From positions 2,914,774 through 2,978,773 of the forward strand of contig OY970122.1 of the NCBI GenBank assembly GCA_963705895.1: DNA of 64,000 nucleotides, read 5' to 3'. Below are positions 27,858 through 64,000 of this stretch, piece by piece. Both the position numbers and the translations under genes were made by a program. Positions within the stretch are counted from its first letter, which is position 1, and every line of letters starts with the position of its first letter. This DNA comes from Candidatus Aminicenantes bacterium. Lineage in GTDB: Bacteria > Acidobacteriota > Aminicenantia > Aminicenantales > JAFGAV01. Under the pieces are notes generated by a model. That model ran no database searches. It worked only from the letters and a program-made list of their open reading frames with translations, and was not told the origin of the DNA.

Positions 27858-27919
27858 AATGCAGACCCCCCATTCAGAAGGGGAGGTCCGCCCCGAAAGC
27901 TTTTAGAACCTGCGCCGAT

Positions 27920-47105: not shown

Positions 47106-47114
47106 GGGGCAACC

Positions 47115-48269
47115 ATGAGAGATGTCGCTGTCATCGGTGTCGGTATGACCAAATGGGGCGAGCTGTGGGACAAGCCGCTCCGGACGATCTTCGTCGAATC
47201 CGCTCTGCTGGCCATCCAGGACGCCGGCCTGGACAAGATCGATTCCATGGTCGTCGGCTGCATGTCCTCGGGCCTGTTCATCGGCCAGGAGCACCTGGCC
47301 TCCCTTCTGTCCGATTACCTGGGCCGGAACCCCATCCCGGCCACGCGGGTGGAGTCGGCCTGCTGCTCGGGAGGGCTGGCCCTCCGCCAGGGCTTTATAG
47401 AGGTCGCGTCCGGGATCAGCGACGTGGTCCTTGTCGGAGGTGTAGAGAAGATGACCGATGTGACGGGCTGCGAGGCAACCTACGCCCTGGGGACAGCGGC
47501 CGACCAGGAGTATGAAGGTTACCATGGGCTGACGTTCCCCGGACTGTACGCCATGATGGCCGTGGCCCACATGCATCGATACGGAACCACCCGGGACCAG
47601 TTGTCGATGGTCGCCGTTAAAAACCATGACAACGGCTCGAAAAACCCGTTGGCCCAGTTCCCATCCAAGGTTACGATCGAAATGGTGAACCAATCTGTGC
47701 TGGTGGCCGACCCCCTGCGAATTTTGGATTGTTCACCCATCACCGACGGAGCCGCAGCCGTTGTCCTGTGTCCGCTGGACATGGCCAAGAAAATGAAGAA
47801 ACCCGTAGTGCGAATCACGGGCAGCGGCCAGGCCACGGATACGATCTCTCTCAGTTCCCGGAAAGATATCACCCGGCTCGAATCGACCCGCGTCGCGGCG
47901 GGCAAGGCCCTGGCTATGGCCGGCCGGAAGATCGAAGACATGGATCTGTTCGAAGTCCATGACTGCTTCACCATCGCCGAGATCATGATTACCGAAGCCC
48001 TGGGGCTTGCGGCCCCTGGTCAGGGCGGAAAGGCGGTCGAGGAGGGGGTGACCGGACTTCGGGGAAAGCACCCCGTCAACCCCAGCGGCGGGCTCAAGTC
48101 CAAAGGCCATCCGGTTGGAGCAACGGGCATCGCCCAAGCCGTGGAAGTCGTCAAGCAGCTTCGCGGCGAAGCCGGCCCGCGTCAAATTAAAAACGCCAAG
48201 CGGGGCCTCACCCAGAACATGGGGGGCACGGGCGGCAGCGCCCTCGTCCATATTTTTGAGGCGGATTGA
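47115..48269 (+). CDS. Thiolase (acetyl-CoA C-acetyltransferase), archaeal/SCP-x type
   Basis: [15 protein letters not shown]...ESACCSGG (Cys) and C-terminal ...GHPVGATG. Confidence 0.9.
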
Positions 48270-48281
48270 AAGGAGAGCCCG

Positions 48282-48674
48282 ATGCCTACACCCTCACGAT
48301 ACTGGCGTGAAATCCCCCAGCGCTACAGGCTGGAGGCGGAAAAATGCAAAGGCTGCAGCCTGATCCTGTTCCCACCCCGGCTGGTTTGTCCGCAATGCGG
48401 AAAGCAGGAATTCGAAAAAACGAAACTGGCCGGCACAGGAAAGCTTGTCACCTATACTATAATCCGGGTCGCGCCCGAGGGTTTCGAGGACCAGTCCCCC
48501 TACGCGGTCGGCATCGCCGAGCTGGACGACGGCGCCCACTTGACAGCCCAGGTTGTGGACTGCGATTTTTCACAGCTAAGAGTGGGACTGCGGGTCAAGC
48601 TCGAATTCCGCAAGATTCACGAGGACGGCGCGGCGGGAATTATTCATTACGGTTATAAGTTCGTCCCGGAATGA
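48282..48674 (+). CDS. DUF35 Zn-ribbon + OB-fold protein (scaffold of the thiolase/HMGCS complex)
   Basis: CKGCSLILFPPRLVCPQCG rubredoxin-like knuckle followed by an OB-fold. Confidence 0.85.
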   Translation: MPTPSRYWREIPQRYRLEAEKCKGCSLILFPPRLVCPQCGKQEFEKTKLAGTGKLVTYTIIRVAPEGFEDQSPYAVGIAELDDGAHLTAQVVDCDFSQLRVGLRVKLEFRKIHEDGAAGIIHYGYKFVPE

Positions 48675-48677
48675 ATC

Positions 48678-50285
48678 ATGTTTAGGATCGAATCCAAGGT
48701 CGACACCCAGAACCCGGACTATAAGCAGAATTTCGAACATCTCAGCCGGCAGGTGGCCGAGCACAAGGCCCTCTTGGCTAAAGTCCAGGAGGGAGGGCCG
48801 CCCAAGGCCCGTGAACTTCACAAATCCCGGAAGAAGCTCCTCGTCCGGGAGCGCCTGGACAGACTCTTCGACCGCAACACACCCTTCCTGGAACTGAGTC
48901 CCCTGGCCGCCTGGAATATGTACGACAACGAGGCGCCCGGGGCGGGAATGGTCACGGGCGTCGGCGTCGTCCACGGCCGCGAGGTGCTGGTCGTGGCCAA
49001 CGACGCCACGGTCAAGGGCGGGACCTATTTCCCCATGACCATCAAGAAGCACATTCGCGCTCAGGAAGTGGCCATGGAAAACCGGCTGCCCTGCATCTAC
49101 CTCGTCGATTCGGGCGGGATTTTCCTGCCGCATCAAGCCGGGACGTTTCCCGATAAGGAGCACTTCGGCCGAATCTTCTACAATCAGGCGCGACTGTCCG
49201 CCATGGGCATTCCCCAAATCTCGATCGTCATGGGTTCGTGCACGGCCGGGGGGGCCTACGTTCCGGCCATGAGCGACGAGACGGTCATCGTCAGGCGCCA
49301 GGGCACCATCTTCATCGGCGGCCCCCCTCTGGTCAAGGCGGCCACGGGCGAAGAGGTCACGGACGAAGATCTGGGCGGGGCCGACGTCCACTGCCGGATC
49401 TCCGGCGTCTCGGACTATTACGCTCAAAACGACGAACACGCCCTGGAGATCGCCCGCAACATCGTCGAAACCCTCGACCCTCCGCGGCGCTTCGAGCTTG
49501 GCAGGGCCGATCCCGAAGACCCCTACTACGATCCCCGGGAGATCTACGGGATTATTCCTCGCGACCTTCGCCGGCACTTCGACATCAAGGAGGTCATCGC
49601 CCGCCTCGTGGACGGCAGCCGCTTCCAGGAGTTCAAGGAACTTTACGCCCAGACGCTCGTGTGCGGTTTCGCCCGTATCATGGGCTATCCGGTCGGCATC
49701 CTGGCCAACAACGGCGTCCTCTTTTCGGAGAGCTCGCTCAAGGGAGCGCATTTCATCACCCTGTGCAGCATGCGCAAGGTGCCGCTCATTTTCCTCCAGA
49801 ACATCACCGGGTTTATCGTGGGCAAACAGTACGAACACCACGGAATCGCCAAGGACGGGGCCAAGCTCGTCCACGCCGTGGCCAATGCCGACGTGCCCAA
49901 GCTGACCGTGATCGTCGGCGGTTCCTACGGCGCCGGAAACTATGCCATGTGCGGCCGGGCCTACCAGCCGCGCCTCCTCTGGATGTGGCCCAACGCCCGG
50001 ATCAGCGTCATGGGCGGCGAGCAGGCAGCCGGCGTCCTGGTCACGGTCAAGGTCAAGCGGCTCCAGGAGCAGGGCCGACAAATGACGGAAGAAGAGAAGA
50101 AGGCCATGATCAAGCCCATCCTGGAAAAATACGAAGAGGAAGCCAGCCCCTGCTATAGCACAGCCAGGCTCTGGGACGACGGCATCCTCGACCCCTTGGA
50201 GACGCGCTCGGCCCTGGCCCTGGGAATCGCCATGAGCCTGAACGCGCCCATTCCGGACTACAAGGTTGGAATCTTCAGAATGTGA
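48678..50285 (+). CDS. 3-Methylcrotonyl-CoA carboxylase carboxyltransferase (beta) subunit-like acyl-CoA carboxylase
   Basis: 535-aa carboxyltransferase, two crotonase-fold domains. N-terminus resembles MccB/LiuB. Confidence 0.85.
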
Positions 50286-50310
50286 CCGGGAGCCGCACCA
50301 GGGGAAGGAT

Positions 50311-51105
50311 ATGAGGGACAAGTCCTACGCAACGATCCGAGTGTCGCGGGAAGGACAGACAGTCGGCCTTTGGCTGAACCGGCCCGAGGTGCACAACGCC
50401 TTCAACGCGCTGATGATTCGCGAGTTGCGGGACGCTCTCCGGATCATCAGGACCGACACGTCGGCGCGCGTCGTTATCCTCTCGGGACAAGGGGCTTCCT
50501 TTTGCGCCGGCGCCGACCTGAACTGGATGCGCGAAATCATACGTTTTTCCTACGAACAAAACCTTCAGGAATCCCTGGACCTGGCCGGATTCCTTTACGA
50601 GCTTTATAACCTGCCCAAGCCGACCGTCGCCCGCGTCAACGGCGCGGCCATCGGCGGCGGCGCAGGATTCGTCGCCGCGTGCGATATCGTCGTGGCTTCG
50701 TCCGAGGCCAAGTTCGGCCTGAGCGAGGTGAAGATCGGTCTGGTACCCGCCTGCATCGCGCCCTATGTCCTGCGGAAGATGGGAGAGGGGTGGTGCCGCC
50801 AGTATTTCCTGACGGGCGAGCGTTTCGATGCCAAGCGAGGCCGGGACATCGGACTGGTTCACATCGTGGCCAAGCCCGCGGAACTGGACAGCCGGATCGA
50901 GGAGCTCATCGGCCGCCTCCTGACGTCGGGGCCTGAAGCCATGGCCAAGGCCAAAGAGCTGCTGGGGCGCGTTCCGGGCATGAGCTTCAAGGAGGCTCAG
51001 CGCTTCACGGCCGAGATGATCGCCGGGCTGAGGACAAGCCCGGAGGGGCAGGAAGGCATGGCCGCTTTCCTTGAGAAACGAAAACCGAAATGGGTCAAGG
51101 ATTAG
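50311..51105 (+). CDS. Enoyl-CoA hydratase family (methylglutaconyl-CoA hydratase/LiuC-like)
   Basis: Crotonase motifs ...ASFCAGADL...GGG. Confidence 0.85.
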   Translation: MRDKSYATIRVSREGQTVGLWLNRPEVHNAFNALMIRELRDALRIIRTDTSARVVILSGQGASFCAGADLNWMREIIRFSYEQNLQESLDLAGFLYELYNLPKPTVARVNGAAIGGGAGFVAACDIVVASSEAKFGLSEVKIGLVPACIAPYVLRKMGEGWCRQYFLTGERFDAKRGRDIGLVHIVAKPAELDSRIEELIGRLLTSGPEAMAKAKELLGRVPGMSFKEAQRFTAEMIAGLRTSPEGQEGMAAFLEKRKPKWVKD

Positions 51106-51134
51106 AGAGATTGCAGGTGCCCAAAGAGAGGTCG

Positions 51135-52661
51135 ATGTTCCAGAAGATCCTAGTCGCCAACAGGGGTGAGATCGCGGTCCGCGTCATCCGGGCTTGTCGC
51201 GAGATGGGGATCGTCCCGGTCGCCGTCTATTCCGAGTCGGACCTGACAAGCCTGCACGTCCAACTGGCCGACGAAGCCGTCCTCCTCGGTCCGGCCCCGG
51301 CAGCGGACAGTTATCTCCACATGGACCGGATCATTCAAGCCGCCAGGCAGACCGGCGCCGAAGCCATCCACCCGGGTTACGGGTTTCTGGCCGAGAACTC
51401 CGACTTCGCCCGGCGATGCGAGAACGAGGGATTGGTCTTCATCGGGCCGAACTCACGGGCCCTGGCGCTTGTAGGCGACAAGGTCCGGGCCCGTCAGACC
51501 ATGGAAGCGGCGGGGGTGCCGATCATTCCCGGGATGATGTCCATTCCCCAGACCGTGTCGGAGTTTAAGAAGGAAGCTCGTCGGCTCGGCTATCCGGTGA
51601 TCGTCAAAGCCTCGGCGGGCGGCGGCGGCAAGGGGATGCGCGTTGTCCAAAGCGAAAAGGACCTGGAGCCAGCAGTCGAGGCCGGGAGGCGCGAGGCCAA
51701 GTCCGCCTTCGGAGACGAATCGGTCTATCTTGAAAAGTATATCGAGGAACCGCGGCATGTCGAGTTCCAGGTCCTGGCCGACTGTCACGGCCGGATGGTC
51801 CATCTCTTTGAGCGCGAATGCTCGATCCAGAGACGCCACCAGAAGCTTATCGAGGAAACTCCCTCCCCCGCCCTCGACCTGGAATTGAGGGCGAAAATGG
51901 GAGAGACGGCCAAGAAGGTCATGGCTGCGGCGGGCTATACGAACGCCGGGACGGTCGAGTTTCTCTTGGACAAAGAGCGTCGCTTCTACTTCCTCGAGGT
52001 GAACGCGAGGCTCCAGGTGGAGCATCCCGTGACCGAGTTCGTTACAGGCGTGGACCTGGTCCGTCAGCAGATCCTTATCGCCGCGGGAGAGCCACTGGCC
52101 TTCGGGCAGGAAGACATCCATCAGCGCGGCCATGCCATCGAATGCCGGATCTATGCTGAGGACGCCGCTCATGGCTTCCTCCCGTCCTCGGGCAAAATCC
52201 TGTTTCTCAAGGAGCCGAAAGGTCCCGGAGTCCGCCTCGACAGCGGGATTTTCGCGGGCTGGGAGGTGCCGGTCTACTATGACCCGATTCTGGCTAAGCT
52301 CATTGTCTGGGCCGAAAGCCGGGATCAGGCCTGCAGGAGGATGGCCGTCGCCTTGCAGGAGTACGTCATCCTGGGCATCCATACCACCATAGAATATTTG
52401 CGGGATGTCGTCCGCCATCCGGAATTCCGGGCCGGACGGCTGCATACGGGGTTCTTAGAAAAGAATTTTAAAGGCTGGGGAGAGAACAGCAAAGATGAGG
52501 CCGCGACGCGGTTGGCCTTGGCGGCCGCGGCTTTCGAAGAGATGGGCCGGCCCGCGCGGGCCGGGGACGGTGCGTCGCAGACCAAGCGCAGCGACTCTCT
52601 GTCTCCTTGGCAATCGCTGGGCCGCTGGAGGCTCGGAGGGCTGGATTCACATGGAATTTGA
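51135..52661 (+). CDS. Biotin carboxylase subunit of an acyl-CoA carboxylase (no fused BCCP domain)
   Basis: ATP-grasp motifs KASAGGGGKGMR and ...EMNARLQVEHPVTE. Confidence 0.9.
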   Translation: MFQKILVANRGEIAVRVIRACREMGIVPVAVYSESDLTSLHVQLADEAVLLGPAPAADSYLHMDRIIQAARQTGAEAIHPGYGFLAENSDFARRCENEGLVFIGPNSRALALVGDKVRARQTMEAAGVPIIPGMMSIPQTVSEFKKEARRLGYPVIVKASAGGGGKGMRVVQSEKDLEPAVEAGRREAKSAFGDESVYLEKYIEEPRHVEFQVLADCHGRMVHLFERECSIQRRHQKLIEETPSPALDLELRAKMGETAKKVMAAAGYTNAGTVEFLLDKERRFYFLEVNARLQVEHPVTEFVTGVDLVRQQILIAAGEPLAFGQEDIHQRGHAIECRIYAEDAAHGFLPSSGKILFLKEPKGPGVRLDSGIFAGWEVPVYYDPILAKLIVWAESRDQACRRMAVALQEYVILGIHTTIEYLRDVVRHPEFRAGRLHTGFLEKNFKGWGENSKDEAATRLALAAAAFEEMGRPARAGDGASQTKRSDSLSPWQSLGRWRLGGLDSHGI

Positions 52662-53157
52662 ATTCGTTGTGGACGGAAGCCGGCGGACCATCACTTTGGA
52701 CAAAAAAGACGATGTATTCATCATCCGAGATGGAGACCAGACCCAGGAGGTCGACATCCGGAGAATCTCTCCGTGCGAGCTCCTGGTGCGCAGGGGAGGG
52801 CACTCGGAGATAGTCTACATCGCCCGCGAGGGTGATCGCAGGTTCGTCTCCGCCGGAGGCCACTATTACGGCGTCTCGGATCCCGCTCAGGATTCGGGGC
52901 GCTATTCCGGCGGTGACGAAAGGACGCCGGAAGGGGGCACCTGCATCAAGGCGCCCATGCCGGGAAGAGTCATCAAGCTGAACGTCGTTGAAGGCGAAGA
53001 GGTGAAGAAGTATCAATCTCTGTTGATCGTCGAGGCCATGAAGATGGAAAACGACATCCGTTCGGCCGCGGACGGCGTGGTCAAGAAAATCCATGTTGTG
53101 GCCGGAGAGCTCGTGGACTCCGAAAAGACTCTCATCGAACTCGGACCGAAAACCTAG
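52651..53157 (+). CDS. Biotin carboxyl carrier protein (stand-alone BCCP)
   Basis: Biotinylation motif EAMKMEN. 11-bp overlap with the biotin carboxylase gene. Confidence 0.85.
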   Translation: MEFEFVVDGSRRTITLDKKDDVFIIRDGDQTQEVDIRRISPCELLVRRGGHSEIVYIAREGDRRFVSAGGHYYGVSDPAQDSGRYSGGDERTPEGGTCIKAPMPGRVIKLNVVEGEEVKKYQSLLIVEAMKMENDIRSAADGVVKKIHVVAGELVDSEKTLIELGPKT

Positions 53158-53200
53158 GGGCGAAACCGGAAGGGATCCTGCGATCCAGGAGGGCACGGAA

Positions 53201-54343
53201 ATGGACGACACGTATGCGGAATCCGTGAAGGAATGCCGGGAGATGGTGCGGGACTTCGCCCGCGCGGAGATCGCTCCCCATGTCCGGGAATGGGACGACA
53301 AGGCCTATTTCCCCGTCGAGGTTTTCCGCAAGCTCGGCGAACTGGGGCTGATGGGGATTTTGATCCCCGAGGAGTTCGGCGGAGCGGGGCTGAGCTATCG
53401 GCACTACGTCGCGATCCTGGAGGAACTGGGTGCCGTCGAGGGAGGCATCGGGCTGTCCGTCGCCGCCCATAATTCACTGGGCACAAATCATGCTTACATA
53501 TTCGGTTCCGGCGAGATTCGCAAGGAATGGGTGCCCCGGCTCGCCCGGGGTGAGGTCCTCGGCGCGTGGGGTCTCACGGAGCCGGAAGCGGGCTCGGACT
53601 CCGGGGCCACCAAAACCACCGCCGTCCGACAGGGAAAGGAATGGATCCTGAACGGCACCAAGAATTTCATCACCCATGCCGGAGCGGGCGGCGCGGCCGT
53701 GATCATGGCCCGGACGACTCCGGGAAAGGACCACCGCGGCATATCAGCCTTCTTCCTGCCGCTCAACAGCCCGGGGGTTACGGTCGGCAAACATGAGGAC
53801 AAGGTGGGGATGCGGATCTCGGATACGGCCTCACTGATCCTGGAGGACTGCCATGTCGGCGAGGGCGCCCTGCTCGGCCGCGAGGGCGACGGGTTCATCC
53901 AGGCCATGCAGGTGCTCGACGGCGGCCGGATCTCGATAGCCGCCCTGGCCGTGGGAATCGCCCGGGGAGCCATGGACGCGGCCGTCTCCTACGCCAAGCA
54001 GCGATGCCAGTTCGGACGGCCGATCGCCGCCTTCCAGGGAATCCGCTTCAAGCTGGCCGATATGGCCACGGAGGTCCAAGCAGCGAGGCTTCTCACCGAG
54101 CGCGCGGCCGACGAGAAGGACGCGGGGCGAAAAACCACGCTCATCTCCTCGCAAGCCAAGCTGTACGCCTCCGAGGTCGCGGTCCGGGCCGCGGAGAACG
54201 CCGTGCAGATTATGGGCGGATACGGCTACTGCAAAGACTACCCTGCGGAAAAATTCTGGCGCGACGCCAAGCTGTGCACCATCGGCGAGGGGACGAGCGA
54301 GATCCAGCGTCTGGTCATCGCCCGAGAGCTTATCGGTGAGTGA
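53201..54343 (+). CDS. Acyl-CoA dehydrogenase (isovaleryl-CoA dehydrogenase-like)
   Basis: ACAD N/middle/C domains. C-terminal ...YCKDYPAEKFWRDAKLCTIGEGTSEIQRLVIAREL. Confidence 0.9.
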   Translation: MDDTYAESVKECREMVRDFARAEIAPHVREWDDKAYFPVEVFRKLGELGLMGILIPEEFGGAGLSYRHYVAILEELGAVEGGIGLSVAAHNSLGTNHAYIFGSGEIRKEWVPRLARGEVLGAWGLTEPEAGSDSGATKTTAVRQGKEWILNGTKNFITHAGAGGAAVIMARTTPGKDHRGISAFFLPLNSPGVTVGKHEDKVGMRISDTASLILEDCHVGEGALLGREGDGFIQAMQVLDGGRISIAALAVGIARGAMDAAVSYAKQRCQFGRPIAAFQGIRFKLADMATEVQAARLLTERAADEKDAGRKTTLISSQAKLYASEVAVRAAENAVQIMGGYGYCKDYPAEKFWRDAKLCTIGEGTSEIQRLVIARELIGE

Positions 54344-54471
54344 AGACGGCGACCCCCGGCCTGTTCAGGGACCCGGAAAACGCCGGGCTTGAGTTTGCCG
54401 CTTGCGAGAGGCCTTGCTTTTTCGCCATCTCGTCGATCGCCGGAAATCGCGAATCCATCAAGGAGAAGAGA

Positions 54472-54981
54472 ATGACCATCGATGAAGCGATTAAGACCGC
54501 CCTTCAATACGAAAACCGTGTCGTAGAGGTTTACGATGAGGCAGTGGGCAAGACCGTCGACCCGACCGGAAAGCGGGTCTTCAAAGCGCTCGTCCTGGAG
54601 GAAAAGAAGCATGTCGAATACCTCGAGGCCAGGCTGGTCGAATGGAACAAGACGGGGCACGTGACGGCCGTCGAGTTGGGCACGATCGTTCCCTCCCGGA
54701 AGAGCATCGAGGAAGGGATTCAAAAGCTCAAGGCCCGGGTGTTAACCGAGGCTAAGGAAACGGAGGTGAGGCTCCTCAAGCGAGCTCTCGACGTCGAAGT
54801 CGAAACGAGCCGTTTCTACACCGAAGTCGTCCGGGAGCTTCCCCCCGAAGGCCAGAAGCTCTTCGAGCGGTTTGTCGAAATCGAACAAGGACACCAGGCT
54901 ATCGTTCAAGCCGAGATGAACGCCGTGTCCGGGCTTGGCTTTTGGTTCGATATGCAAGAGTTCACTCTCGAAGGCAGCTGA
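54472..54981 (+). CDS. Rubrerythrin/ferritin-like diiron protein
   Basis: Two E-x-x-H motifs (EEKKHVE, EIEQGH) in a four-helix pattern. Confidence 0.6.
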   Translation: MTIDEAIKTALQYENRVVEVYDEAVGKTVDPTGKRVFKALVLEEKKHVEYLEARLVEWNKTGHVTAVELGTIVPSRKSIEEGIQKLKARVLTEAKETEVRLLKRALDVEVETSRFYTEVVRELPPEGQKLFERFVEIEQGHQAIVQAEMNAVSGLGFWFDMQEFTLEGS

Positions 54982-55005
54982 CAAGCTCCCAATCTCGGGC
55001 GAAGG

Positions 55006-56250
55006 CTAAGCCCGCCGATAGACGATGGCCACCACCGTCTTGTCGTTCCCGCCCATGTTCACGGAGAGAGCGTAAGGCCTCTGCGGCGAGATTTCGATCT
55101 GCCAGTTGCCGGCTTTTCCGGTGAGCTGCTGCCAGACCGTAACGGCCTGCCGCACGCCCGTGCCGCCCGTGGGATGCCCCCAGCCGATCAACCCGCCGCA
55201 GGTGTTGAAGGGCACGCTTCCCCCCCGGGAGGTTTCACCGGCCAGGATATAATCCGGTCCCTCGCCCCGGCCGGCAAACCCGACGGCTTCCACGGACATC
55301 AGCCCCGAGATTGTGAAACAATCATGGCATTCAACCGTTCCGATGTCTTTCAGAGCAATCCTCGCCGAATCGAGCGCCTTCGTTACGGCCCGGGCCGTCG
55401 TTTCCAGATAGGTCGGGTCCTCGGGAGGAACGGTCAGGTCGGCTTCGACCTGGCCCCAGCCGACGACTTCCACGGCCTGGGATTCGGGAAGGCCGGTCCG
55501 TTTCAATCCGTCTTCGGAGACGACGGCGATCGCGGCCGCCGCGTCCGAAACCTTGGAGCAGTCATAGACATTCAAATGATCGACAAAGCCCTTCGGGTTC
55601 GGCTCCGTCAGGGCCAGCGCTTCCAGGTCCGGACAGGTGTTATGGAATTCCTGGGCGGTTTCGCACAGACGGGCGTTTTCGACGGCGGCCCGGTACCAGC
55701 GGGCAAACGCACGCCGAGTCTTGTCGCGGCCATACTTATCAAAATAGGCGCCCGCCCGGTCGCTGAAAAGCGCGGGAAAGAAAAAGGCGTGACCCTTTTT
55801 TCGCTCGCCCCGGAACCAGCCGGCGCCGGCCAGGTAATCCGCGCCGTACACGGCCTTGACCGTGTTCTGGACTTCGACGCCAATCGTCAGGACGACGTCC
55901 GCGGTCTCGGCCAGGACGGACTTGAGCGCGGTCATGAGGGCCAACCCGCCGGAGCCGCAAGCCCCTTCGACCCGGCAACACGGCTTATACCGCAGGCTTG
56001 GGTCCACGGAGGGGATGAGGGCCGCCAAGTGGCCCTGCTTGTTGAACCGGGCCGCCATGAAGTTGCCGATTACTCCCTCGTCGACCCTCTCGCCGCCGCC
56101 GATCTGCTTCAGTGTGCCCTGGCCGGCTTCACGAATGAGCTCCTCGAGGCCGGGCCGGGGCTTCTTGGGGCTGAATTCCTTCCGCCCCGTGCCCATGGAG
56201 ACTGTCGTGTATCCCGCAGTCATGAAAATCCGTTTGCGCTTCTTGGTCAT
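55006..56250 (-). CDS. Thiolase-family protein (SCP-x/nsLTP-like thiolase domain)
   Basis: CRVEGACGSGG (Cys nucleophile) and ...GHPTGGTG C-terminal motif. Confidence 0.85.
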   Translation of the reverse strand: MTKKRKRIFMTAGYTTVSMGTGRKEFSPKKPRPGLEELIREAGQGTLKQIGGGERVDEGVIGNFMAARFNKQGHLAALIPSVDPSLRYKPCCRVEGACGSGGLALMTALKSVLAETADVVLTIGVEVQNTVKAVYGADYLAGAGWFRGERKKGHAFFFPALFSDRAGAYFDKYGRDKTRRAFARWYRAAVENARLCETAQEFHNTCPDLEALALTEPNPKGFVDHLNVYDCSKVSDAAAAIAVVSEDGLKRTGLPESQAVEVVGWGQVEADLTVPPEDPTYLETTARAVTKALDSARIALKDIGTVECHDCFTISGLMSVEAVGFAGRGEGPDYILAGETSRGGSVPFNTCGGLIGWGHPTGGTGVRQAVTVWQQLTGKAGNWQIEISPQRPYALSVNMGGNDKTVVAIVYRRA

Positions 56251-56261
56251 GGCATGTCCTC

Positions 56262-57602
56262 TCAATCGAAATAGGGATTGATCGGGCCGTAGGCGTGATA
56301 AAACCCGGTCAGCAGGACCGTATTGACGTCATTCTCCGAGGCCGCAACGCCGCTCTTGATCAGGCCCAGTCCGATGTCCTTGGATTTCCGGCCGTGGCGC
56401 CTGGCCAGGTCGGCACCGAGGGTTTTCATCCCAGAGAGCTGCTTGAAGTATTCCTCGAGGTAGCTCGCCTTCTGGGGGTCCTGGATGACGCTTTTCCAGG
56501 GTTTGGCCTGGCCCGGCAGCCCGCCCAGCCTCTCGTCGCACCGAGCCGCGATGTCCGAGACGGCGACATAGGATTTCCGGTCCGGGTCATAGACCCCGGC
56601 CGGGCGGCCCTTATCGTATTTTAGGAATCCGTCCTTCTGGGACCCGTCGACGAACTGGCCGCCCCGGACGCCGGTTGCGACCAGCCCGTCGATGAGCGGG
56701 CTGTGGAGCCCGGCGCCGGGAAGGCGGTCGTTCATAACGCGCAGGATGCTCTGACAGACATCGAGGCCGACATAGTCAACGAGCTGGAAGATACCCATGG
56801 GCCGGATGAGGAAATCCTGGCTGACCTTGTTCACCATGTAAACGGCGTCCACGAAACCGGACTCCTTGGCCAGGCTTTCGACCTCCGACAGGGCATAGAG
56901 GCCGTCCCTCATGAAGTGGCCGTTGCCGATGAACCCGGCCACATCCCGCGACGGCACGACGGTTTTGCGCAGCTTCTTGGCCAGCTCGACCGAGAAATCC
57001 CCCAGCGCGGAGAGTGAGGAATCGGCTCGGATCAGCTCCACCAGCTTCTGCACAGCCGGCGGATTGTAGAAGTGGAAGCCGACGATGCGTCCCTCAAGTT
57101 TCACTCGATCGTTCAACTCGGAGATGGGAATCGAGGAGGTGTTGGTCAGGAACCAGACGTCCCGCGAGTTGTGAGATTTGATTTTCGACAGGAGGTTGAC
57201 CTTGAGGTCTGGGTTCTCGTTGACCGCCTCGAAGACCAGTGTGGCGTTGTAGGACGCCTCGACCTGGGTGGAGGGCCGGACGATGGACATGACGTCCTGC
57301 ACGTACTGGCCGATGACCTCCTCATTTTCTATGAGATCCTCGCGCTTGGCGTAAGCTTTCCTCAGCCAGACGGCTTTTTTCTCTGCCGCTTTATGAACCT
57401 GGGTTCGGAGATACTCCAACAGCCCCGTGAGCATCTGGTCGGATATGTCCACAGCGTGGAGGACCCTGTCCTTGGGCGGCTGCCCGGCGTCCAGGCCCAG
57501 GTCGGCCATTTCCATGGCCGCGAGCAGGACGATGCCGCTCCCCATCTTGCCTGCGGCGCCCAGGACCGCTACGTTCTCGAAACGCTCGGCGTAATTCATC
57601 AT
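56262..57602 (-). CDS. 3-Hydroxyacyl-CoA dehydrogenase (NAD-binding + C-terminal dimerisation domains)
   Basis: VAVLGAAGKMGSGI Rossmann motif and FHFYNPP. 4-bp overlap with the thiolase. Confidence 0.85.
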   Translation of the reverse strand: MMNYAERFENVAVLGAAGKMGSGIVLLAAMEMADLGLDAGQPPKDRVLHAVDISDQMLTGLLEYLRTQVHKAAEKKAVWLRKAYAKREDLIENEEVIGQYVQDVMSIVRPSTQVEASYNATLVFEAVNENPDLKVNLLSKIKSHNSRDVWFLTNTSSIPISELNDRVKLEGRIVGFHFYNPPAVQKLVELIRADSSLSALGDFSVELAKKLRKTVVPSRDVAGFIGNGHFMRDGLYALSEVESLAKESGFVDAVYMVNKVSQDFLIRPMGIFQLVDYVGLDVCQSILRVMNDRLPGAGLHSPLIDGLVATGVRGGQFVDGSQKDGFLKYDKGRPAGVYDPDRKSYVAVSDIAARCDERLGGLPGQAKPWKSVIQDPQKASYLEEYFKQLSGMKTLGADLARRHGRKSKDIGLGLIKSGVAASENDVNTVLLTGFYHAYGPINPYFD

Positions 57603-57619
57603 TCTCTCTCCTGTCGGTC

Positions 57620-58399
57620 CTAGGACTGACTCGGCCAGCGAGGCGCGCGTTTTTCCAGGAAGGCGCGCATCCCCTCGGCGGCTTCGTTCTCGAACAGGGA
57701 GCCGAAGGTCTCTGATTCCAGGGCGCAGCCCGATTCGAAATCCATCAGGAAGCCCTGACGAGCAACTTTCTTGACGAGCTGAACGGCCCTGGGGCCCTTG
57801 GAGGCGATGGTTTTGGCCAGCTCGGTTGCCGCGGCCAAGAGCTGCTCGGGCTCGACGACCTTTTGGACGAGTCCCATCCGCAGGGCCTCGTCGGCGCCGA
57901 TCATCTCCCCCGACATCAAAAGATAGAGTGCGTTTCCCAGCCCGACGAGCCGCGGAAGCCGTTGCGTTCCGGCATACCCCGGGATGACGCCCAGGTTGAC
58001 TTCGGGCTGTCCGAACTTGGCCTTCGAACTCGCGATCCGGACATCGCAGGCCAGGGCCAGCTCGCAGCCGCCGCCCAGGGCGAACCCGTTCACGGCCGCA
58101 ATCACCGGCTGGGGAAGGAGCTCGAGTTTGCGGAATGTCTTTTGTCCTCGCTTCGAAAATTCTCGGCCCTCGTCCTGGGTTTTTTGAACCATCTCGGCGA
58201 TGTCGGCTCCGGCGACGAAGGCTTTCCCCTCACCGGTGATGACCAGAACCTTGACCTCTCGCCGTGAACTCATCTCAGAAATAAGATTGTCCATCTCCTG
58301 GAAAAATCGCGTGTTCAGGGCGTTGAGCGCCTCGGGCCGGGAAATGGTGATAACCGCCACTCCCTCGCTTATCTGCATTTTCAGAATCTGGAAATCCAT
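57620..58399 (-). CDS. Enoyl-CoA hydratase (crotonase)
   Basis: KAFVAGADI...GGG crotonase motifs. Confidence 0.9.
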   Translation of the reverse strand: MDFQILKMQISEGVAVITISRPEALNALNTRFFQEMDNLISEMSSRREVKVLVITGEGKAFVAGADIAEMVQKTQDEGREFSKRGQKTFRKLELLPQPVIAAVNGFALGGGCELALACDVRIASSKAKFGQPEVNLGVIPGYAGTQRLPRLVGLGNALYLLMSGEMIGADEALRMGLVQKVVEPEQLLAAATELAKTIASKGPRAVQLVKKVARQGFLMDFESGCALESETFGSLFENEAAEGMRAFLEKRAPRWPSQS

Positions 58400-58411
58400 T
58401 GTCGGCCTCCT

Positions 58412-59557
58412 TCAATCGCCGATCAGCGACCGGGCGATCACCAGACGCTGAATCTCGGACGTGCCCTCGTAAATCTCGGTGATGCGTTGGTCACGATAGA
58501 GTCGCTCCACCTTGTAGTCCTTCATGAAGCCGTACCCCCCGTGAATCTGCAGGGCTTTGTGGCAGACCCGATGCGACATCTCCGAGGCGAACAGTTTGGC
58601 GATGGCCGACTCCTTAGTAAATCGTTTCGCCCCGGAATCCTTCATCCAGGCGGCTCGGTAGACCATGGTCTTGGCCACTTCCACGTCAACGGCCATATCG
58701 GCCAGCATAAACTGTAAACCTTCCAACTCCACCAGCGGCTTGCCGAATTGGACTCGCTCCTTGGCATAACGAACCGCCTCCTCCAGGGCCGCCTCGGCGA
58801 TGCCCACGGCCTGGGCCGCGATGCCGATCCGGCCGCAGTCCAGCGTGGCCAGGGCAATGCTCAACCCTCGGTTTTCCTGACCCAGAAGACAGGAGGCCGA
58901 GACCCGGCAGTCGGTGAAAACGAGCTCAGTCGTGCTCGACGACCGGATGCCCAGCTTGTTCTCATGTTTGCCTACGGCGAAACCAGGGATGTCCTTCATG
59001 ATGAGAAAGGCCGAGATGCCCTTGGCCCCCTTCGTCTTGTCGGTGCAGAAAAAGGCGATGATCACGTCGGCGAAGGCACCATTGGTCGTGAAGTTCTTGG
59101 TGCCGTTCAGGACGAAATCGGTCCCGTCATGGACGGCAGTGGCCCGCAAGGACCCCGGGTCGCTGCCTGCGCCGGCCTCGGTCAGGGAAAAGCAGCCGAA
59201 CCATTCGCCGGAGGCCAGCTTGGGCAGGAACGTCCGCTTCTGTTCCTCCGAGCCGAACATCGTCACGGCATCGTTGACCAGGGAGTTCTGGACCGAAACA
59301 CCCACGGCCGTGCCGGCGTCCACCTTGCTGAACTCGATCATGGCCCCGGCGTAGACCACGGCGCCCAGGCCTGTCCCGCCGTATTCCTCCGAAACGGTCA
59401 TGCCCAGGTAGCCGAGCTCACCCAGCTTTCGGAGCGCGGCGATGTTCGATTCCTGCTTGGCATCCAGCTCCTCGGCGACCGGCGCCAGCTCCTTTTCGGC
59501 GAATTTCTTTGCCCCGTCGATGACCATTTTTTGTTCCTCAGAAAATTCGAAGTTCAC
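58412..59557 (-). CDS. Acyl-CoA dehydrogenase (short-chain/butyryl-CoA dehydrogenase-like)
   Basis: ACAD fold. C-terminal YEGTSEIQRLVIARSL. Confidence 0.9.
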   Translation of the reverse strand: MNFEFSEEQKMVIDGAKKFAEKELAPVAEELDAKQESNIAALRKLGELGYLGMTVSEEYGGTGLGAVVYAGAMIEFSKVDAGTAVGVSVQNSLVNDAVTMFGSEEQKRTFLPKLASGEWFGCFSLTEAGAGSDPGSLRATAVHDGTDFVLNGTKNFTTNGAFADVIIAFFCTDKTKGAKGISAFLIMKDIPGFAVGKHENKLGIRSSSTTELVFTDCRVSASCLLGQENRGLSIALATLDCGRIGIAAQAVGIAEAALEEAVRYAKERVQFGKPLVELEGLQFMLADMAVDVEVAKTMVYRAAWMKDSGAKRFTKESAIAKLFASEMSHRVCHKALQIHGGYGFMKDYKVERLYRDQRITEIYEGTSEIQRLVIARSLIGD

Positions 59558-59584
59558 GGTCTTGCCTCCTTTTTTATTCCATGA

Positions 59585-60019
59585 TCAACGAGTATGAGAT
59601 GAGTGCCAACCCTTGATGTAATCGACGATTTCCTGTAAGTTGTCTCCGGGTCCGAACACCTTTTCAACCCCCAGGATGCGCAGCTTTTCCTGGTCCTTGG
59701 TGGGGATAATCCCGCCGCCGGTCAAGAGGCGGTTTCCCAGGCCGGCTTTGTCCATGAGTTCCCGGACCCTGCGGAAATGGGCCAGGTGAGCGCCCGACAG
59801 GATGGACAGGCCAATGACATCGGCATCCTCTTCGACCGCGGCCCGGACGATGGATTCGGGGGTCTGCTGGAGCCCTAGGTAGACGACTTCCATCCCGGCC
59901 TCGACCAGGGCCCGGGCGACCACCTTGGCGCCCCGGTCGTGTCCGTCGAGTCCCGGCTTGGCGATGATGACTTTGATCTGTGGGCTGGCCATGTTCGCTT
60001 CCCCTTGTGGTGATGTCAA
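59585..60019 (-). CDS. Cobalamin-binding small subunit of an acyl-CoA mutase (IcmB-like)
   Basis: DxHxxG B12-binding motif (LDGHDRG) in a Rossmann-like domain, about 140 aa. Confidence 0.9.
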   Translation of the reverse strand: MTSPQGEANMASPQIKVIIAKPGLDGHDRGAKVVARALVEAGMEVVYLGLQQTPESIVRAAVEEDADVIGLSILSGAHLAHFRRVRELMDKAGLGNRLLTGGGIIPTKDQEKLRILGVEKVFGPGDNLQEIVDYIKGWHSSHTR

Positions 60020-61659
60020 TAGAAGGGCCGCTCCCGGTATTCCCCGAAGACCCTGGTGAGCGTCTCGCTGATCTCGCCCACCGAGGCGTACACCCGCGAG
60101 GCCTCCAGAAGATGGGGGATTAGGTTCTCGGTTCCGGCGGCGGCCTTCTCCAGGACGGCCAGCCGGCTCCGGACGGCCGCGTTGTCCCGCTGCTTCTTGA
60201 TCTCCGCCAGGCCCCGGACCTGGTCGGTCTCGACGGATTCCTCGATTTCCAGGACCGGAATTTCCACCGTTTCCCGGGCGTTGATGAAGTCGTTGACCCC
60301 AACCAGGATCTTCTTCTTGCGGGACAGGGCCAGCTGGTACTGGTAGGCGGCCCGGGTGATCTCGCGCTGGAAAAACCCCTGCTCAATGGCGGGGACCACG
60401 CCACCCAGCTCCTCGATTCTTTGGAAATAGTGCTCCGCCTCGCGCTCCAGGTCGTCAGTCAGCTTTTCGATGTAGTAGGAGCCGCCTAGCGGGTCGATGA
60501 CCTCGGCCACGCCGCTCTCAAAGGCGATGATCTGCTGGGTGCGCAGGGCGATCTCCACGGCTTTTTCCGAGGGCAGGGCCAGGGCCTCGTCCATGGAATT
60601 GGTGTGAAGGCTCTGGCAGCCCCCCAGAACGCCGGCCAGGGCCTCCAGGGCGGTGCGGACGATGTTGATCTCCGGCTGCTGGGCGGTCAGGCTGCAGCCG
60701 GCTGTCTGGACATGGAAGCGGCACAGCCAGGAACGCGGATTCTTGGCTTTGTATTTCTCCTTCATGTGCCGGGCCCAAATCCTGCGGGCCGCCCTCAGCT
60801 TGGCGATCTCCTCGAAGAAGTCCAGGTGGGAGTTGAAAAAAAAGGACAGCCGCGGGGCGAAATCGTCGATGTCCATTCCGGCTCTCAAGGCGTGCTCCAC
60901 GTAGCTGAACCCGTCGGCCAGGGTGAAGGCCAGTTCTTGGGCCGCCGTGGACCCCGCCTCGCGGATGTGGTAGCCACTGATGGAGATAGTGTTCCACTGG
61001 GGCACGCGGTCCGCGCAGAAGGCCATGAGGTCGGTGATGAGGCGCAGGTGCGGTTCGGGCGGGAAGATCCACTCCTTCTGGGCGATATACTCCTTGAGGA
61101 TATCGTTCTGGAGGGTCCCCCGGAGGGCCGCCAAGGGGATGTTTCTTTTCTCAGCGTTGGCCAGGAACATGGTGAAGATCCAGGCTGCCGGAGCATTGAT
61201 GGTCATAGAGGTCGAGATCTTGTCCAGGGGGATGTCGCGGAATAGGCGCTCCATGTCGGCCAGGGTATCAACGGCCACGCCCGTCCGCCCCACTTCGCCC
61301 GCGGACAGGGGATGATCAGAATCCCGGCCGTAGAGCGTCGGGTTGTCGAACGCCACCGACAGGCCCGTCTGTCCCCGGGCCAGGAGGAAATGGTACCGCT
61401 CGTTTGTTTGCCCGGCGGTGCCCATCCCTGAAAATTGGCGCATGGTCCAGAGCTTCCCCCGGTACATCGAGGGATGGATGCCCCGGACATAAGGGTACTC
61501 GCCGGGGAAACCCAGGCGGCTTTCGTAGTCGAAGCCGGCGATGTCATCCGGAGTGTAGAGGGGCTGAAGCTGCCGCCCGGAGATCGAGGAAAACTCAGCG
61601 TCACGCAATTCCGAATTTCGGTATTGTTCTTCCCAGTGTTTTTTAGTGGCGTTGTTCAT
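60016..61659 (-). CDS. Acyl-CoA mutase large (catalytic TIM-barrel) subunit with isobutyryl-CoA mutase-type specificity residues
   Basis: TMRQFSGMGT has Phe where MCM has Tyr89. ILKEYIAQKEWIFPP has Gln where MCM has Arg207. ATGA overlap with the small subunit. Confidence 0.9.
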   Translation of the reverse strand: MNNATKKHWEEQYRNSELRDAEFSSISGRQLQPLYTPDDIAGFDYESRLGFPGEYPYVRGIHPSMYRGKLWTMRQFSGMGTAGQTNERYHFLLARGQTGLSVAFDNPTLYGRDSDHPLSAGEVGRTGVAVDTLADMERLFRDIPLDKISTSMTINAPAAWIFTMFLANAEKRNIPLAALRGTLQNDILKEYIAQKEWIFPPEPHLRLITDLMAFCADRVPQWNTISISGYHIREAGSTAAQELAFTLADGFSYVEHALRAGMDIDDFAPRLSFFFNSHLDFFEEIAKLRAARRIWARHMKEKYKAKNPRSWLCRFHVQTAGCSLTAQQPEINIVRTALEALAGVLGGCQSLHTNSMDEALALPSEKAVEIALRTQQIIAFESGVAEVIDPLGGSYYIEKLTDDLEREAEHYFQRIEELGGVVPAIEQGFFQREITRAAYQYQLALSRKKKILVGVNDFINARETVEIPVLEIEESVETDQVRGLAEIKKQRDNAAVRSRLAVLEKAAAGTENLIPHLLEASRVYASVGEISETLTRVFGEYRERPFY

Positions 61660-62689
61660 GGCCGGTCCTTTTTGTCCTGTGTTGGATTTTAACCTGAGCG
61701 CAGAGCCGACGGATGTAAGGGTATGGAGACCTCCGGTTCTTGGTGAACCTCTCGGCTGCAGCCGGGATTCCTTCTCCGGCCTTGGTCAAGGCCGAAAACC
61801 TGTCCCATAAATTCCGTTGGATCATGTCCCGGATCTCTCTCTCCATGAGCGCGCGTCTCTTTTCATGATATTTACCGGACGTGAGAAGCGCCTGGATTCG
61901 GTTCTCCATCTCCCTGTGGACATCGTCCAGCCCTTCGTCGCGGAGGGCCGATGCGGCCAGGATAGGTGGGACACCTCCGGCCTCCGGCCGGCGGCTGATT
62001 TCGAACATAAAACGGAGGGACTCCAGGAGCGTTTCTGTCCCCGGGAGGTCGGCCTTGTTGATCAGGAACATGTCCGCCGCTTCCAGAATCCCGGCCTTGA
62101 GCGCTTGGATCTCGTCGCCCGTGCCCGGTTGGAGCACGAGAATGAGAAGGTCCACACAGCCGAGGACGTCCAACTCGGCCTGGCCGACGCCGACCGTCTC
62201 GATGAAAATGCGGTTCAGACCGAAGGCGTCGAGAACGTCCGCGACCAGGGGAGTCGCGGGAGACAGGCCGCCGTGCCCTCCGCGCGAAGCGAGCGAGCGG
62301 ATGAAGATATGATCGTCGCCGCTTAGATCCTGCATTCGGACGCGGTCTCCCAGGAATGCGCCGCCGGTGAAGGGGCTGGAGGGGTCGACGGCGATGATGC
62401 CGACAGTCTGATTATGTTGGGCGGCCCGGCGGGCCAAGGCCGCGGTGACGGTGCTCTTCCCGACCCCCGGCGGTCCGGTGATTCCGATGCGAAAGGCGCC
62501 GTTCAGGTGGGGGATCACATGGTCACGAACCTCCGGCCCGATCGTCGGATAATTTTCAATGGCGGTGATCAGGCGCGCGCATGCCAGTCGATTGCCGCGA
62601 AAAAACTCAGTCCATAACTCGGCTGAGATCAACAAACTGGGCTGTTTATTTTTGCCGCGAAAATCCTTCTTCTTGACCTCAGAGATCAT
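61643..62689 (-). CDS. meaB: MeaB/ArgK-type G-protein chaperone for B12-dependent mutases
   Basis: P-loop GPPGVGKST, NKAD G4 motif. Confidence 0.9.
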   Translation of the reverse strand: MISEVKKKDFRGKNKQPSLLISAELWTEFFRGNRLACARLITAIENYPTIGPEVRDHVIPHLNGAFRIGITGPPGVGKSTVTAALARRAAQHNQTVGIIAVDPSSPFTGGAFLGDRVRMQDLSGDDHIFIRSLASRGGHGGLSPATPLVADVLDAFGLNRIFIETVGVGQAELDVLGCVDLLILVLQPGTGDEIQALKAGILEAADMFLINKADLPGTETLLESLRFMFEISRRPEAGGVPPILAASALRDEGLDDVHREMENRIQALLTSGKYHEKRRALMEREIRDMIQRNLWDRFSALTKAGEGIPAAAERFTKNRRSPYPYIRRLCAQVKIQHRTKRTGHEQRH

Positions 62690-62869
62690 TTTGCCACAAA
62701 CGGCCTTTAATAGAATGGTGGTAAAAATATATTCCCCGGATAGGGGCCTGTCAAGGATTTGAACGCGTCCACTACATCCGAGACGCCGAGGTCTTATGAG
62801 ATTGAAGCCAAGAGCGGCAATATTCGGCCGGGGTTAGGTATTCAAGGGTCTGAACTCGTTTTCCATCGC

Positions 62870-62899
62870 CTTGGGCACCTCTCAGCCTTTGGTCTATAA
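62870..62899 (+). promoter_or_regulatory. Possible promoter TTGGGC-N18-TATAAT with a very short leader before mfd
   Basis: TATAAT at 62894-62899; mfd ATG at 62910. Confidence 0.2.
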
Positions 62900-62909
62900 T
62901 AAAAAGCCT

Positions 62910-64000
62910 ATGAGCCTGAATTTCCTCTTCGAGACGGCCGAGTTCAGGCGTCTCACCCAGGCCCTCGAGCAAGGCCGACAGGGGATGACTCTGTCCGGGG
63001 TTTCCGACCCGGCCAAGCCCTACATTCTTTCCTGCCTGGCTCAAAAAATGGGCCGGCCTATGGTCGTTGTCCGGCCCTTCTCAGCCCGCCTGACGGATTT
63101 CGCCGACCGCTGCCGGTTCTTCCTGAGGGAGCTCTCAGGCCGGGCGGACGTGGCCGTTCTCCCGGCCCTCACCTTCGACCCCTATGAGGACATTCCGCCC
63201 TCGCTTGACTCGGTCGCGACGCGGATGAGGTTTTTTTACGAACTACAGGCCAAGAGGCCGGCCCTGATCGTGACCAACCTGCCGGGCCTGCTCAAGCCTT
63301 TCCCGGCGCCCGAGGAGCTCGAATCATTCTTCCTGAGGTTGGAGAAAGGACAGGGATACGAACGCGACAGCCTGCTCCGGCGCCTTTCGGAATTCGGCTA
63401 TGCCCGCGAGGAGCTGGTCGCTTCCCACGGCGAATTCGCCGGCCGGGGCGGGATCGTCGACGTCTTCTCGCCCTGGGAGACCTATCCCTTTCGCATCGAG
63501 TTCAGCGGCGAAGACGTGGTCTCGATCCGGACCTTCGACCCGTCCTCCCAGCGTTCCGTGGAAAGGCGGGACCGGCTTGTCCTGCCCTCGCTCCGGGAAT
63601 TCCCCGGCACGGCCGATTTTTTCCGCGCTTGCCTCGAGGCGGCCCTGAAACGGTCGGGCTCGGCCTACGAGGACGTCGCCTCCAAACAGGCGCTCCTCGA
63701 ACAGGGCGAGGTCTACCCGGCCTTTCACTGTGAGTCCCTCATCCGGGCCGAGCGCTTCGCTTCCTTCGATCGCTACCTGCCCGAGGCGATGTTCGTGGTC
63801 GATGACCTCGATGACGTCGAAACCGAATGGAAGGAATCCCGGGAAGAGCTGGCCCGGGAATACGATGAGCTTCGGTCCAAGCGAAAGTACGGCCTTCCTC
63901 CCGACGAGATTTTTCCGCCCGCGGGCTGGACCAAGATCCGGACGGAGGCGACCCTGTTCCGGACTCTCGTCTCGCCCGGCGACCGCAGCGTCTTCACCTT
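62910..64000 (+). CDS. mfd: Transcription-repair coupling factor, N-terminal (UvrB-homology) region; continues beyond window
   Basis: MSLNFLFETAEF... and ...HGEFAGRGGIVDVFSP, typical of the Mfd N-terminal domain. Runs off the window end. Confidence 0.85.
   Translation, partial: MSLNFLFETAEFRRLTQALEQGRQGMTLSGVSDPAKPYILSCLAQKMGRPMVVVRPFSARLTDFADRCRFFLRELSGRADVAVLPALTFDPYEDIPPSLDSVATRMRFFYELQAKRPALIVTNLPGLLKPFPAPEELESFFLRLEKGQGYERDSLLRRLSEFGYAREELVASHGEFAGRGGIVDVFSPWETYPFRIEFSGEDVVSIRTFDPSSQRSVERRDRLVLPSLREFPGTADFFRACLEAALKRSGSAYEDVASKQALLEQGEVYPAFHCESLIRAERFASFDRYLPEAMFVVDDLDDVETEWKESREELAREYDELRSKRKYGLPPDEIFPPAGWTKIRTEATLFRTLVSPGDRSVFT

Follow-up and report, generated by a model that had tools for sequence, protein, structure and literature searches.

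A putative isobutyryl-CoA mutase operon with a complete short-chain beta-oxidation set in a Candidatus Aminicenantes bacterium

Introduction

Which acyl-CoA is rearranged by a B12-dependent mutase whose relatives are publicly named "methylmalonyl-CoA mutase family protein", and what does it mean that the enzymes of a whole beta-oxidation turn are encoded directly beside it? This question is raised by seven genes at positions 55006-62689 of a 64,000-nucleotide stretch of contig OY970122.1 (positions 2,914,774 to 2,978,773; assembly GCA_963705895.1) from a Candidatus Aminicenantes bacterium, which was analyzed as a whole and is referred to as the window. Our comparative sequence analysis suggests, with a probability of about 0.68, that they encode a two-subunit adenosylcobalamin-dependent isobutyryl-CoA mutase (ICM) and its MeaB-type chaperone, followed by the enzymes for a single catabolic turn of beta-oxidation to acetyl-CoA.

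Active site and specificity of the mutase

The large subunit of the mutase (547 aa, 60016-61659, minus strand) contains the motifs RQFSG (residues 74-78), LSVAFD, YIAQKEW (residues 191-197) and SGYH. Its Phe76 (codon 61432-61434, minus strand) occupies the column of Tyr89 in the methylmalonyl-CoA mutase (MCM) of Propionibacterium shermanii, as documented by the alignment with the structure 1req. The entry 5req has Phe in the very same column and presumably represents the Y89F mutant of MCM, thus serving as a positional control. In the same alignment Gln194 (codon 61078-61080, minus strand) is found at the position of Arg207, which lies within the motif FMVRNTY of MCM. We take the combination of Phe and Gln, equivalent to Phe80 and Gln198 of Streptomyces cinnamonensis, to be the established signature of ICM. 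The fused mutase IcmF of Ideonella dechloratans, annotated by an NCBI equivalog model, likewise exhibits Phe at the first and Gln (DQGQNTC) at the second column and shares 38% identity with the query across the substrate domain, whereas the column of Tyr89 is occupied by Ile in the 2-hydroxyisobutyryl-CoA mutase (HCM) subunit HcmA and by Leu in Xaut_5043, a candidate pivalyl-CoA mutase (PCM). Both substitutions had been proposed in a preliminary description of the locus, together with the assignment to the ICM type. Both substitutions are confirmed and the assignment is supported: the two residues agree with those of IcmF and differ from the equivalents in HCM, the PCM candidate and MCM. The alignment of the specificity residues, on which that description had made its assignment depend, separated the query from HCM, the PCM candidate and MCM; for ethylmalonyl-CoA mutase, the third alternative named there besides HCM and PCM, it is the loss of the carboxylate-binding Arg that probably argues against an assignment.

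The architecture is that of a two-subunit ICM, with an MM_CoA_mutase-type large subunit and a separate B12-binding subunit (135 aa, 59585-59992, minus strand) that harbors the base-off/His-on motif DxHxxG in the form DGHDRG (residues 16-21; 59930-59947). The MeaB-type protein retains the P-loop GPPGVGKST and the motif NKAD.

Three other mutase types were considered and rejected at this level. HCM came into consideration as the top match among the solved structures and was ruled out by its Ile and Asp, which are replaced by Phe and Ala in the query. PCM was considered with respect to the adjacent isovaleryl-CoA cluster (see below) and dismissed on account of four divergent motifs in Xaut_5043. 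The fused ICM is a single polypeptide and the query consists of three separate genes, whose scores with the IcmF model NF045497 (372, 110 and 66 bits) stay far below its cut-off of 1500. A characterized IcmA was absent among the Streptomyces plasmid matches, of which the S. parvulus copy is of the Tyr/Arg type and the others are at most 53% identical.

Organization of the operon

The interval 55006-62689 is filled exactly by seven co-directional open reading frames (ORFs) on the minus strand, and all seven proteins have strong family matches in Pfam and NCBIfam. In the direction of reading, the MeaB-type G-protein chaperone (348 aa, 61643-62689; PF03308, 2.8e-73; TIGR00750, 264 bits vs. a cut-off of 240.75) is followed by the large, predicted substrate-binding subunit of the mutase (PF01642, 7.9e-219; TIGR00641, 736 bits) and the small subunit (PF02310, 5e-28; TIGR00640, 143 bits vs. 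a cut-off of 57). The second half comprises a predicted short-chain (butyryl-CoA-type) acyl-CoA dehydrogenase (ACAD; 381 aa, 58412-59557, three Acyl-CoA_dh domains), a crotonase, i.e., a putative short-chain enoyl-CoA hydratase (259 aa, 57620-58399; ECH_1, 1.8e-69), a long-form 3-hydroxyacyl-CoA dehydrogenase (445 aa, 56262-57599; 3HCDH_N, 7e-30) and a thiolase resembling the SCP2 type (type 2; 414 aa, 55006-56250; Thiolase_C_1, 3e-28).

The start codons of three genes were refined by comparison with relatives and by ribosome-binding sites. The small subunit is placed at ATG 59992, which is preceded by the ribosome-binding site AAGGGGAAG and yields the 135 aa seen in relatives, and not at TTG 60019 (longest ORF 59585-60019). 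On the basis of the relatives the thiolase is likewise assigned to ATG 56250 instead of TTG 56265 (longest ORF 55006-56265). The start of the long dehydrogenase at 57599 (longest ORF 56262-57602) corresponds to the 445 aa on record for the source genome. With these starts, the chaperone and mutase genes overlap by 17 bp, as in one of the relatives (L004), and the successive intergenic gaps amount to 23, 27, 12, 20 and 11 bp. The preliminary description had recognized the seven genes in this order and orientation, which the ORFs and family matches corroborate. Of its spacing by "4-bp overlaps or short gaps" only the short gaps of 11-27 bp remain, since the 4-bp overlaps resulted from taking the longest ORFs and a single overlap of 17 bp is present instead.

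A sequence resembling a sigma-70-type promoter (TTGACA-17-TATATT; 62726-62754, minus strand) is located 37 bp upstream of the chaperone start. It matches the consensus at 11 of 12 positions and is the best-scoring site in 54300-64000, and on the strength of this consensus match we regard it as a candidate promoter only. The intergenic region 62690-62909 contains promoter-like sites on both strands. Tight spacing, the promoter-like site and the conserved order (see below) indicate that the seven genes very probably constitute a real operon that would be co-transcribed.

Beta-oxidation enzymes

The closest solved relatives of the ACAD are butyryl-CoA and short-chain acyl-CoA dehydrogenases (Bcd/SCAD; 5ol2_C, 1jqi, 4l1f and human ACADS) with 358-372 bits, compared to 297 bits for the short/branched-chain acyl-CoA dehydrogenase (SBCAD), 247-279 bits for isovaleryl-CoA dehydrogenases (IVD) and 244 bits for the isobutyryl-CoA dehydrogenase ACAD8. 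This ranking places the enzyme closer to butyryl-CoA than to isobutyryl- or isovaleryl-CoA dehydrogenases and suggests a corresponding chain-length preference. Its C-terminal catalytic Glu is retained in the motif IYEGTSE. The best NCBIfam match of the crotonase is the short-chain enoyl-CoA hydratase PRK05809 (330 bits, under the cut-off of 394), and both motifs with the catalytic Glu residues (GGGCELA, FGQPE) are present.

The 3-hydroxyacyl-CoA dehydrogenase contains the motifs NTSS, HFYNP, VELI and GNGH, which we assign to the catalytic Ser, His, Glu and Asn of this family. It is atypically long, and metagenomes contain numerous homologues of 445-450 aa. Its AlphaFold model (pLDDT 82) matches structures of 3-hydroxyacyl-CoA dehydrogenases including Hbd with E-values of about 1e-18 and corresponds over about 440 columns, i.e., its full length, to the dehydrogenase part of FadB/FadJ-type enzymes. 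The modeled protein may accordingly be interpreted as a regular 3-hydroxyacyl-CoA dehydrogenase that carries an additional helical domain at its C-terminus. The thiolase is not of the common type either, and its best solved relatives (3zbg, 3zbk and 4bi9; 224-235 bits) are SCP2-type-2 thiolases of trypanosomatids. Its nucleophile motif is CGSGG (residue 98), an HDCF loop is present at residue 309, and no DUF35 partner of the enzyme is encoded in the mutase operon. With catalytic motifs retained in all four proteins, the short-chain beta-oxidation set looks complete and catalytically competent, in agreement with its initial recognition as a complete set.

Conservation of the operon and distribution of the mutase family

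The seven genes are found in identical order in four relatives (L004/L087, L005 and L088) with 84% identity of the mutase, and three shorter contigs (L006-L008; 80-84% identity) retain the order up to the end of the contig. The entire operon is thus present in each relative with a sufficiently long contig, and the named ones are labeled Aminicenantes or Aminicenantales. The recurrence of the same seven-gene order shows that this arrangement is not due to chance.

The operon of L004 is flanked by M42 peptidases and a serine dehydratase. In L005 it is preceded by genes for NuoE/NuoF-like, molybdopterin-containing formate-dehydrogenase-like and NfnAB-like proteins (1300-8332) and followed by genes for a phosphotransacylase and an ADP-forming acyl-CoA synthetase (16776-19984), a context that is typical of a fermentative or syntrophic energy metabolism.

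In species-representative genomes, at least 599 matching stretches were retrieved by a scan, of which 80 loci with 58-82% identity were kept. The motifs R[QML]F[AS]G and YIAQKEW are present in all 80 loci and the narrower version RQF[AS]G in 75, in a sample that is biased toward the Phe/Gln signature because EYIAQKEW was one of the search patterns. The loci originate from Aminicenantes, Zixibacteria, Ignavibacteriota, Bacteroidota, Gemmatimonadota, Actinomycetota, Eremiobacterota, Bacillota and others. In the neighbor-joining tree the query and L004-L008 are located within a large Phe/Gln clade that unites them with the 80 loci, with HCM, the PCM candidate and the Tyr/Arg copy from a Streptomyces plasmid outside of it. 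The mutase is hence, as far as can be told from its sequence, one member of a large and widespread family whose relatives are for the most part probably misannotated.

Of 52 Phe/Gln loci that are more distant and covered by 15 kb of sequence or more, 26 are accompanied by one or several beta-oxidation-type genes and nine by two or more kinds, as counted with the proteins of the window as probes, which limits the sensitivity. None of the 52 loci has all four kinds and none has the thiolase. The complete fusion of mutase and beta-oxidation genes therefore appears to be specific to the query's own clade. Another conserved neighborhood is seen in the metagenome-assembled genomes of L013, L029, L038 and L045, where a Phe/Gln mutase is located beside MeaB, ACAD and a carboxyltransferase that is only 33-35% identical to that of the window; L029 and L038 are labeled Ignavibacteria.

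The neighboring leucine-type cluster and the wider window

The mutase operon is convergent with a cluster of the leucine/isovalerate type on the plus strand (46059-54343). Its first part (46059-48674) encodes an archaeal-type 3-hydroxy-3-methylglutaryl (HMG)-CoA synthase (549 bits vs. a cut-off of 353), an archaeal-type thiolase and a DUF35 protein, which together are the parts of an archaeal channeling complex. The remainder (48678-54343) comprises a carboxyltransferase, a methylglutaconyl-CoA-hydratase-like crotonase, a biotin carboxylase, a biotin carboxyl carrier protein and a second ACAD, and the carboxylase subunits resemble methylcrotonyl-CoA carboxylase. The earlier designation of this neighbor as a leucine cluster is confirmed. 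An HMG-CoA lyase gene is not visible in the window. The HMG-CoA synthase cluster could serve a lyase-independent catabolism of leucine, a link from leucine to mevalonate, or the synthesis of isovaleryl-CoA.

The order of the cluster and its convergent orientation relative to the mutase operon are kept in two relatives (L087 and L088). In L088 the ACAD of the leucine-type cluster has switched to the strand of the mutase operon and is located right after the thiolase (12822-13967), thereby creating an eight-gene operon. Because of this switch we infer a functional link between the two gene sets.

The HMG-CoA synthase gene has a divergently oriented neighbor, a CoA-transferase pair (44136-45874, minus strand). 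This pair was considered as an AibA/AibB-like decarboxylase, which would indicate a myxobacterial-style synthesis of isovaleryl-CoA, and this candidate was dropped since the scores for the glutaconate CoA-transferase GctA/GctB (239/215 bits) are far higher than those for AibA/AibB (102/76 bits). A butyryl-CoA:acetate-CoA-transferase-like gene (41811-43430, plus strand) scores below the curated cut-off, and L088 has a CoA-transferase gene in a position equivalent to that of the window. Peptidases are also encoded in the window.

The 3' end of the operon is located 24 bp from the stop of the convergent gene. The latter is a rubrerythrin/ferritin-like ORF (213 aa, 54340-54981, plus strand) between both convergent clusters, whose first 4 bp are shared with the end of the second ACAD. 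L087 and L088 lack an equivalent of this ORF at the corresponding position. On the opposite side a gene for an Mfd-like protein with a UvrB-interaction domain (62910-64000, plus strand) is divergent from the operon and runs past the end of the window. The region 26000-30000 has a GC content of 0.535-0.547, compared to about 0.61 elsewhere, and contains ORFs with a low third-position GC content and without Pfam match. For one ORF (172 aa, 29398-29916) the only match is to an amino-acid permease profile and is confined to the C-terminal third of the latter, and the region may represent decayed or foreign DNA. No tRNA genes are present in the window.

Proposed pathway and alternative explanations

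According to the proposed pathway, isobutyryl-CoA would be supplied by valine, or by isobutyrate that is activated through the nearby CoA-transferases, and would be isomerized by the mutase to n-butyryl-CoA. The Bcd/SCAD-type dehydrogenase would then form crotonyl-CoA, the crotonase would hydrate it, the long dehydrogenase would oxidize 3-hydroxybutyryl-CoA to acetoacetyl-CoA, and the SCP2-type thiolase would cleave the latter into two acetyl-CoA. By being coupled to beta-oxidation, the mutase reaction, which is near equilibrium, would be pulled forward. We favor the catabolic direction because of the peptidases, the ATP-dependent biotin carboxylase and the CoA-transferases in the genomic context; the direction itself, the identity of the substrate, the physiological origin of isobutyryl-CoA and any syntrophic lifestyle are all deduced indirectly. 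The preliminary description had likewise expected isobutyryl-CoA and butyryl-CoA to be interconverted and the latter to be oxidized, an interpretation that the analysis supports. An isomerization of isobutyrate with subsequent beta-oxidation is accepted as the route both for Syntrophothermus (PMC5017805) and for a Syntrophomonadaceae bin (PMC8674449).

Several observations weigh against this interpretation. The closest solved structure of the mutase by score is HCM (4r3u; 554 bits, E-value 3e-165), and IcmF reaches only 307 bits. The tree was calculated without the characterized stand-alone IcmA of S. cinnamonensis, and this applies likewise to the identities. The meaning of the Phe/Gln signature is drawn from background knowledge, and several of the best NCBIfam matches of the operon proteins score under the curated cut-offs. 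Neither the window nor the flanks of ±10 kb in the relatives contain etfAB genes that would point to an electron acceptor for the ACAD. Moreover, the oxidation of butyryl-CoA is energetically hard for a fermenter, and the set of thiolase, Hbd, Crt and Bcd suits the synthesis of butyryl-CoA equally well.

The last point leads to a flux in the reverse direction, in which two acetyl-CoA would be converted via butyryl-CoA to isobutyryl-CoA, be it for isobutyrate as an end product, for a starter of iso-even fatty acids, or for valine via reductive carboxylation. All five reactions are reversible, the four enzymes correspond to the classical set of butyrate synthesis with a clostridial Bcd among the relatives of the ACAD, the known direction of the neighboring HMG-CoA synthase complex is synthetic, and the step from butyryl-CoA to isobutyryl-CoA has been proposed as a route to isobutyrate in chain-elongating clostridia (PMC7764203). 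Nevertheless, reductive Bcd systems normally have etfAB, which is missing beside the ACAD in the window and its relatives, the ATP-consuming biotin carboxylase in the linked cluster points to catabolism, and neighbors such as the peptidases, the serine dehydratase and the ADP-forming acyl-CoA synthetase/phosphotransacylase suggest a breakdown of amino acids with substrate-level phosphorylation. We therefore consider biosynthesis to be unlikely, albeit with a real chance of being correct.

A different uncharged acyl-CoA would be compatible with the active site as well, since Phe and Gln only indicate a substrate without a carboxylate or hydroxyl group to be bound. The mutase might interconvert 2-methylbutyryl-CoA and n-valeryl-CoA, or pivalyl-CoA and isovaleryl-CoA with the latter feeding the adjacent isovaleryl-CoA pathway, and the thiolase and the long dehydrogenase would then act on 2-methyl-branched or C5 intermediates. 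SCP2-type thiolases typically take 2-methyl-branched substrates, and the operon is convergent with the isovaleryl-CoA-type cluster with one ACAD moving between both operons. [quoted passage not shown] Yet the ACAD is most similar to butyryl-CoA dehydrogenases, with SBCAD and IVD more distant. The query also has none of the changes of Xaut_5043 (Leu in place of Phe and three further motifs), which together with Xaut_5044 we take to be a dedicated PCM, and the PCM activity of IcmF is weak, all of which makes a C5 substrate very unlikely. An ordinary split MCM, as implied by the public annotation, is scarcely credible. The names of the source proteins and the high similarity to MCM structures (434-468 bits) speak for it, but both residues that bind the carboxylate of the substrate are replaced (Tyr89 by Phe, Arg207 by Gln), the NCBIfam equivalog model NF006944 is matched with only 613 bits vs. 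a cut-off of 876, and the operon is devoid of propionyl-CoA and epimerase genes.

If the isobutyryl-CoA mutase reading holds, a far-reaching extension of it would combine the mutase operon and the convergent cluster to a conserved module of about 17 kb that oxidizes the acyl-CoAs derived from valine and leucine, or external isobutyrate and isovalerate, all the way to acetyl-CoA, with HMG-CoA being split by a reversed HMG-CoA synthase/thiolase/DUF35 complex. We regard this extension as speculative and distinctly unlikely. If it were true, the reversed channeling complex would save one thioester bond, and an abundant uncultured lineage would be an oxidizer of branched-chain fatty acids whose leucine catabolism has an unprecedented last step.

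The chemistry, the signature residues and the logic of the pathway are already known, and since the pathway type has been described from anaerobic bacteria, the operon is a tidy and unsurprising example of it. New aspects are the membership of a lineage whose nearest named relatives are labeled Aminicenantes, the complete fusion in a single operon with an unusual dehydrogenase and thiolase, and the conserved pairing with a cluster of the leucine type, which comprises an HMG-CoA synthase complex and in which no lyase is visible. No literature linking Aminicenantes and isobutyryl-CoA was found among the searchable papers. If the isobutyryl-CoA mutase reading is correct, the annotation "methylmalonyl-CoA mutase family" hides a route for valine carbon via butyryl-CoA to acetyl-CoA that bypasses propionyl-CoA, in a lineage that is uncultured and common in metagenomes. 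This would bear on the question of which organisms in anoxic sediments and digesters consume branched-chain amino and fatty acids, and the operon would provide a compact, self-contained system to test an isobutyryl-CoA mutase from beyond Streptomyces and Proteobacteria.

Comparison with known systems

The two-subunit organization resembles IcmA/IcmB of Streptomyces cinnamonensis (EC 5.4.99.13), whose large and B12-binding subunits comprise about 550-570 aa and about 135 aa, respectively, and which has Phe and Gln in place of Tyr89 and Arg207 of MCM. The Streptomyces icm genes are unlinked and serve the supply of polyketide precursors, whereas both subunits, MeaB and the full beta-oxidation set of the query are united in one operon. 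IcmF (Cupriavidus metallidurans, 4xc6; Ideonella dechloratans, WP_151122359) also comprises a MeaB-type G-protein and, in Ideonella, shows the same residues in the Phe and Gln columns, but its parts are joined in one polypeptide of about 1,100 aa in contrast to the three separate genes of the window. On a plasmid of I. dechloratans (L089, 1402-7501) the fused IcmF gene is directly followed by genes for a 3-hydroxybutyryl-CoA dehydrogenase and an ACAD, and a partial linkage of mutase and beta-oxidation genes is therefore also found in Betaproteobacteria.

HcmA/HcmB of Aquincola tertiaricarbonis (4r3u) shares the split subunits and the Gln in the column of Arg207 with the query. Nevertheless, HcmA and Xaut_5021, the HCM copy of Xanthobacter, exhibit RQIAG and ISTDFD instead of RQFSG and LSVAFD, and HCM clusters carry a ligase for 2-hydroxyisobutyryl-CoA (2-HIBA-CoA ligase), a gene that is absent from the window operon. 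The pair Xaut_5043/Xaut_5044 of Xanthobacter autotrophicus Py2, which we presume to be a characterized PCM, likewise consists of split subunits with an adjacent MeaB-type gene. Xaut_5043 is only 38% identical to the query and has RQLIG, ISLLPCCSG, FIANHQF and VGQH at the positions of RQFSG, LSVAFDNPT, YIAQKEW and SGYH.

A split mutase together with a MeaB-like protein is also known from Slip_0757-0760 of Syntrophothermus lipocalidus, for which an isomerization prior to beta-oxidation has been proposed (PMC5017805). This likeness is based on the description of the system, which mentions an adenosyltransferase and no fusion with beta-oxidation genes; the operon of the window, by comparison, is devoid of an adenosyltransferase and contains all four beta-oxidation enzymes.

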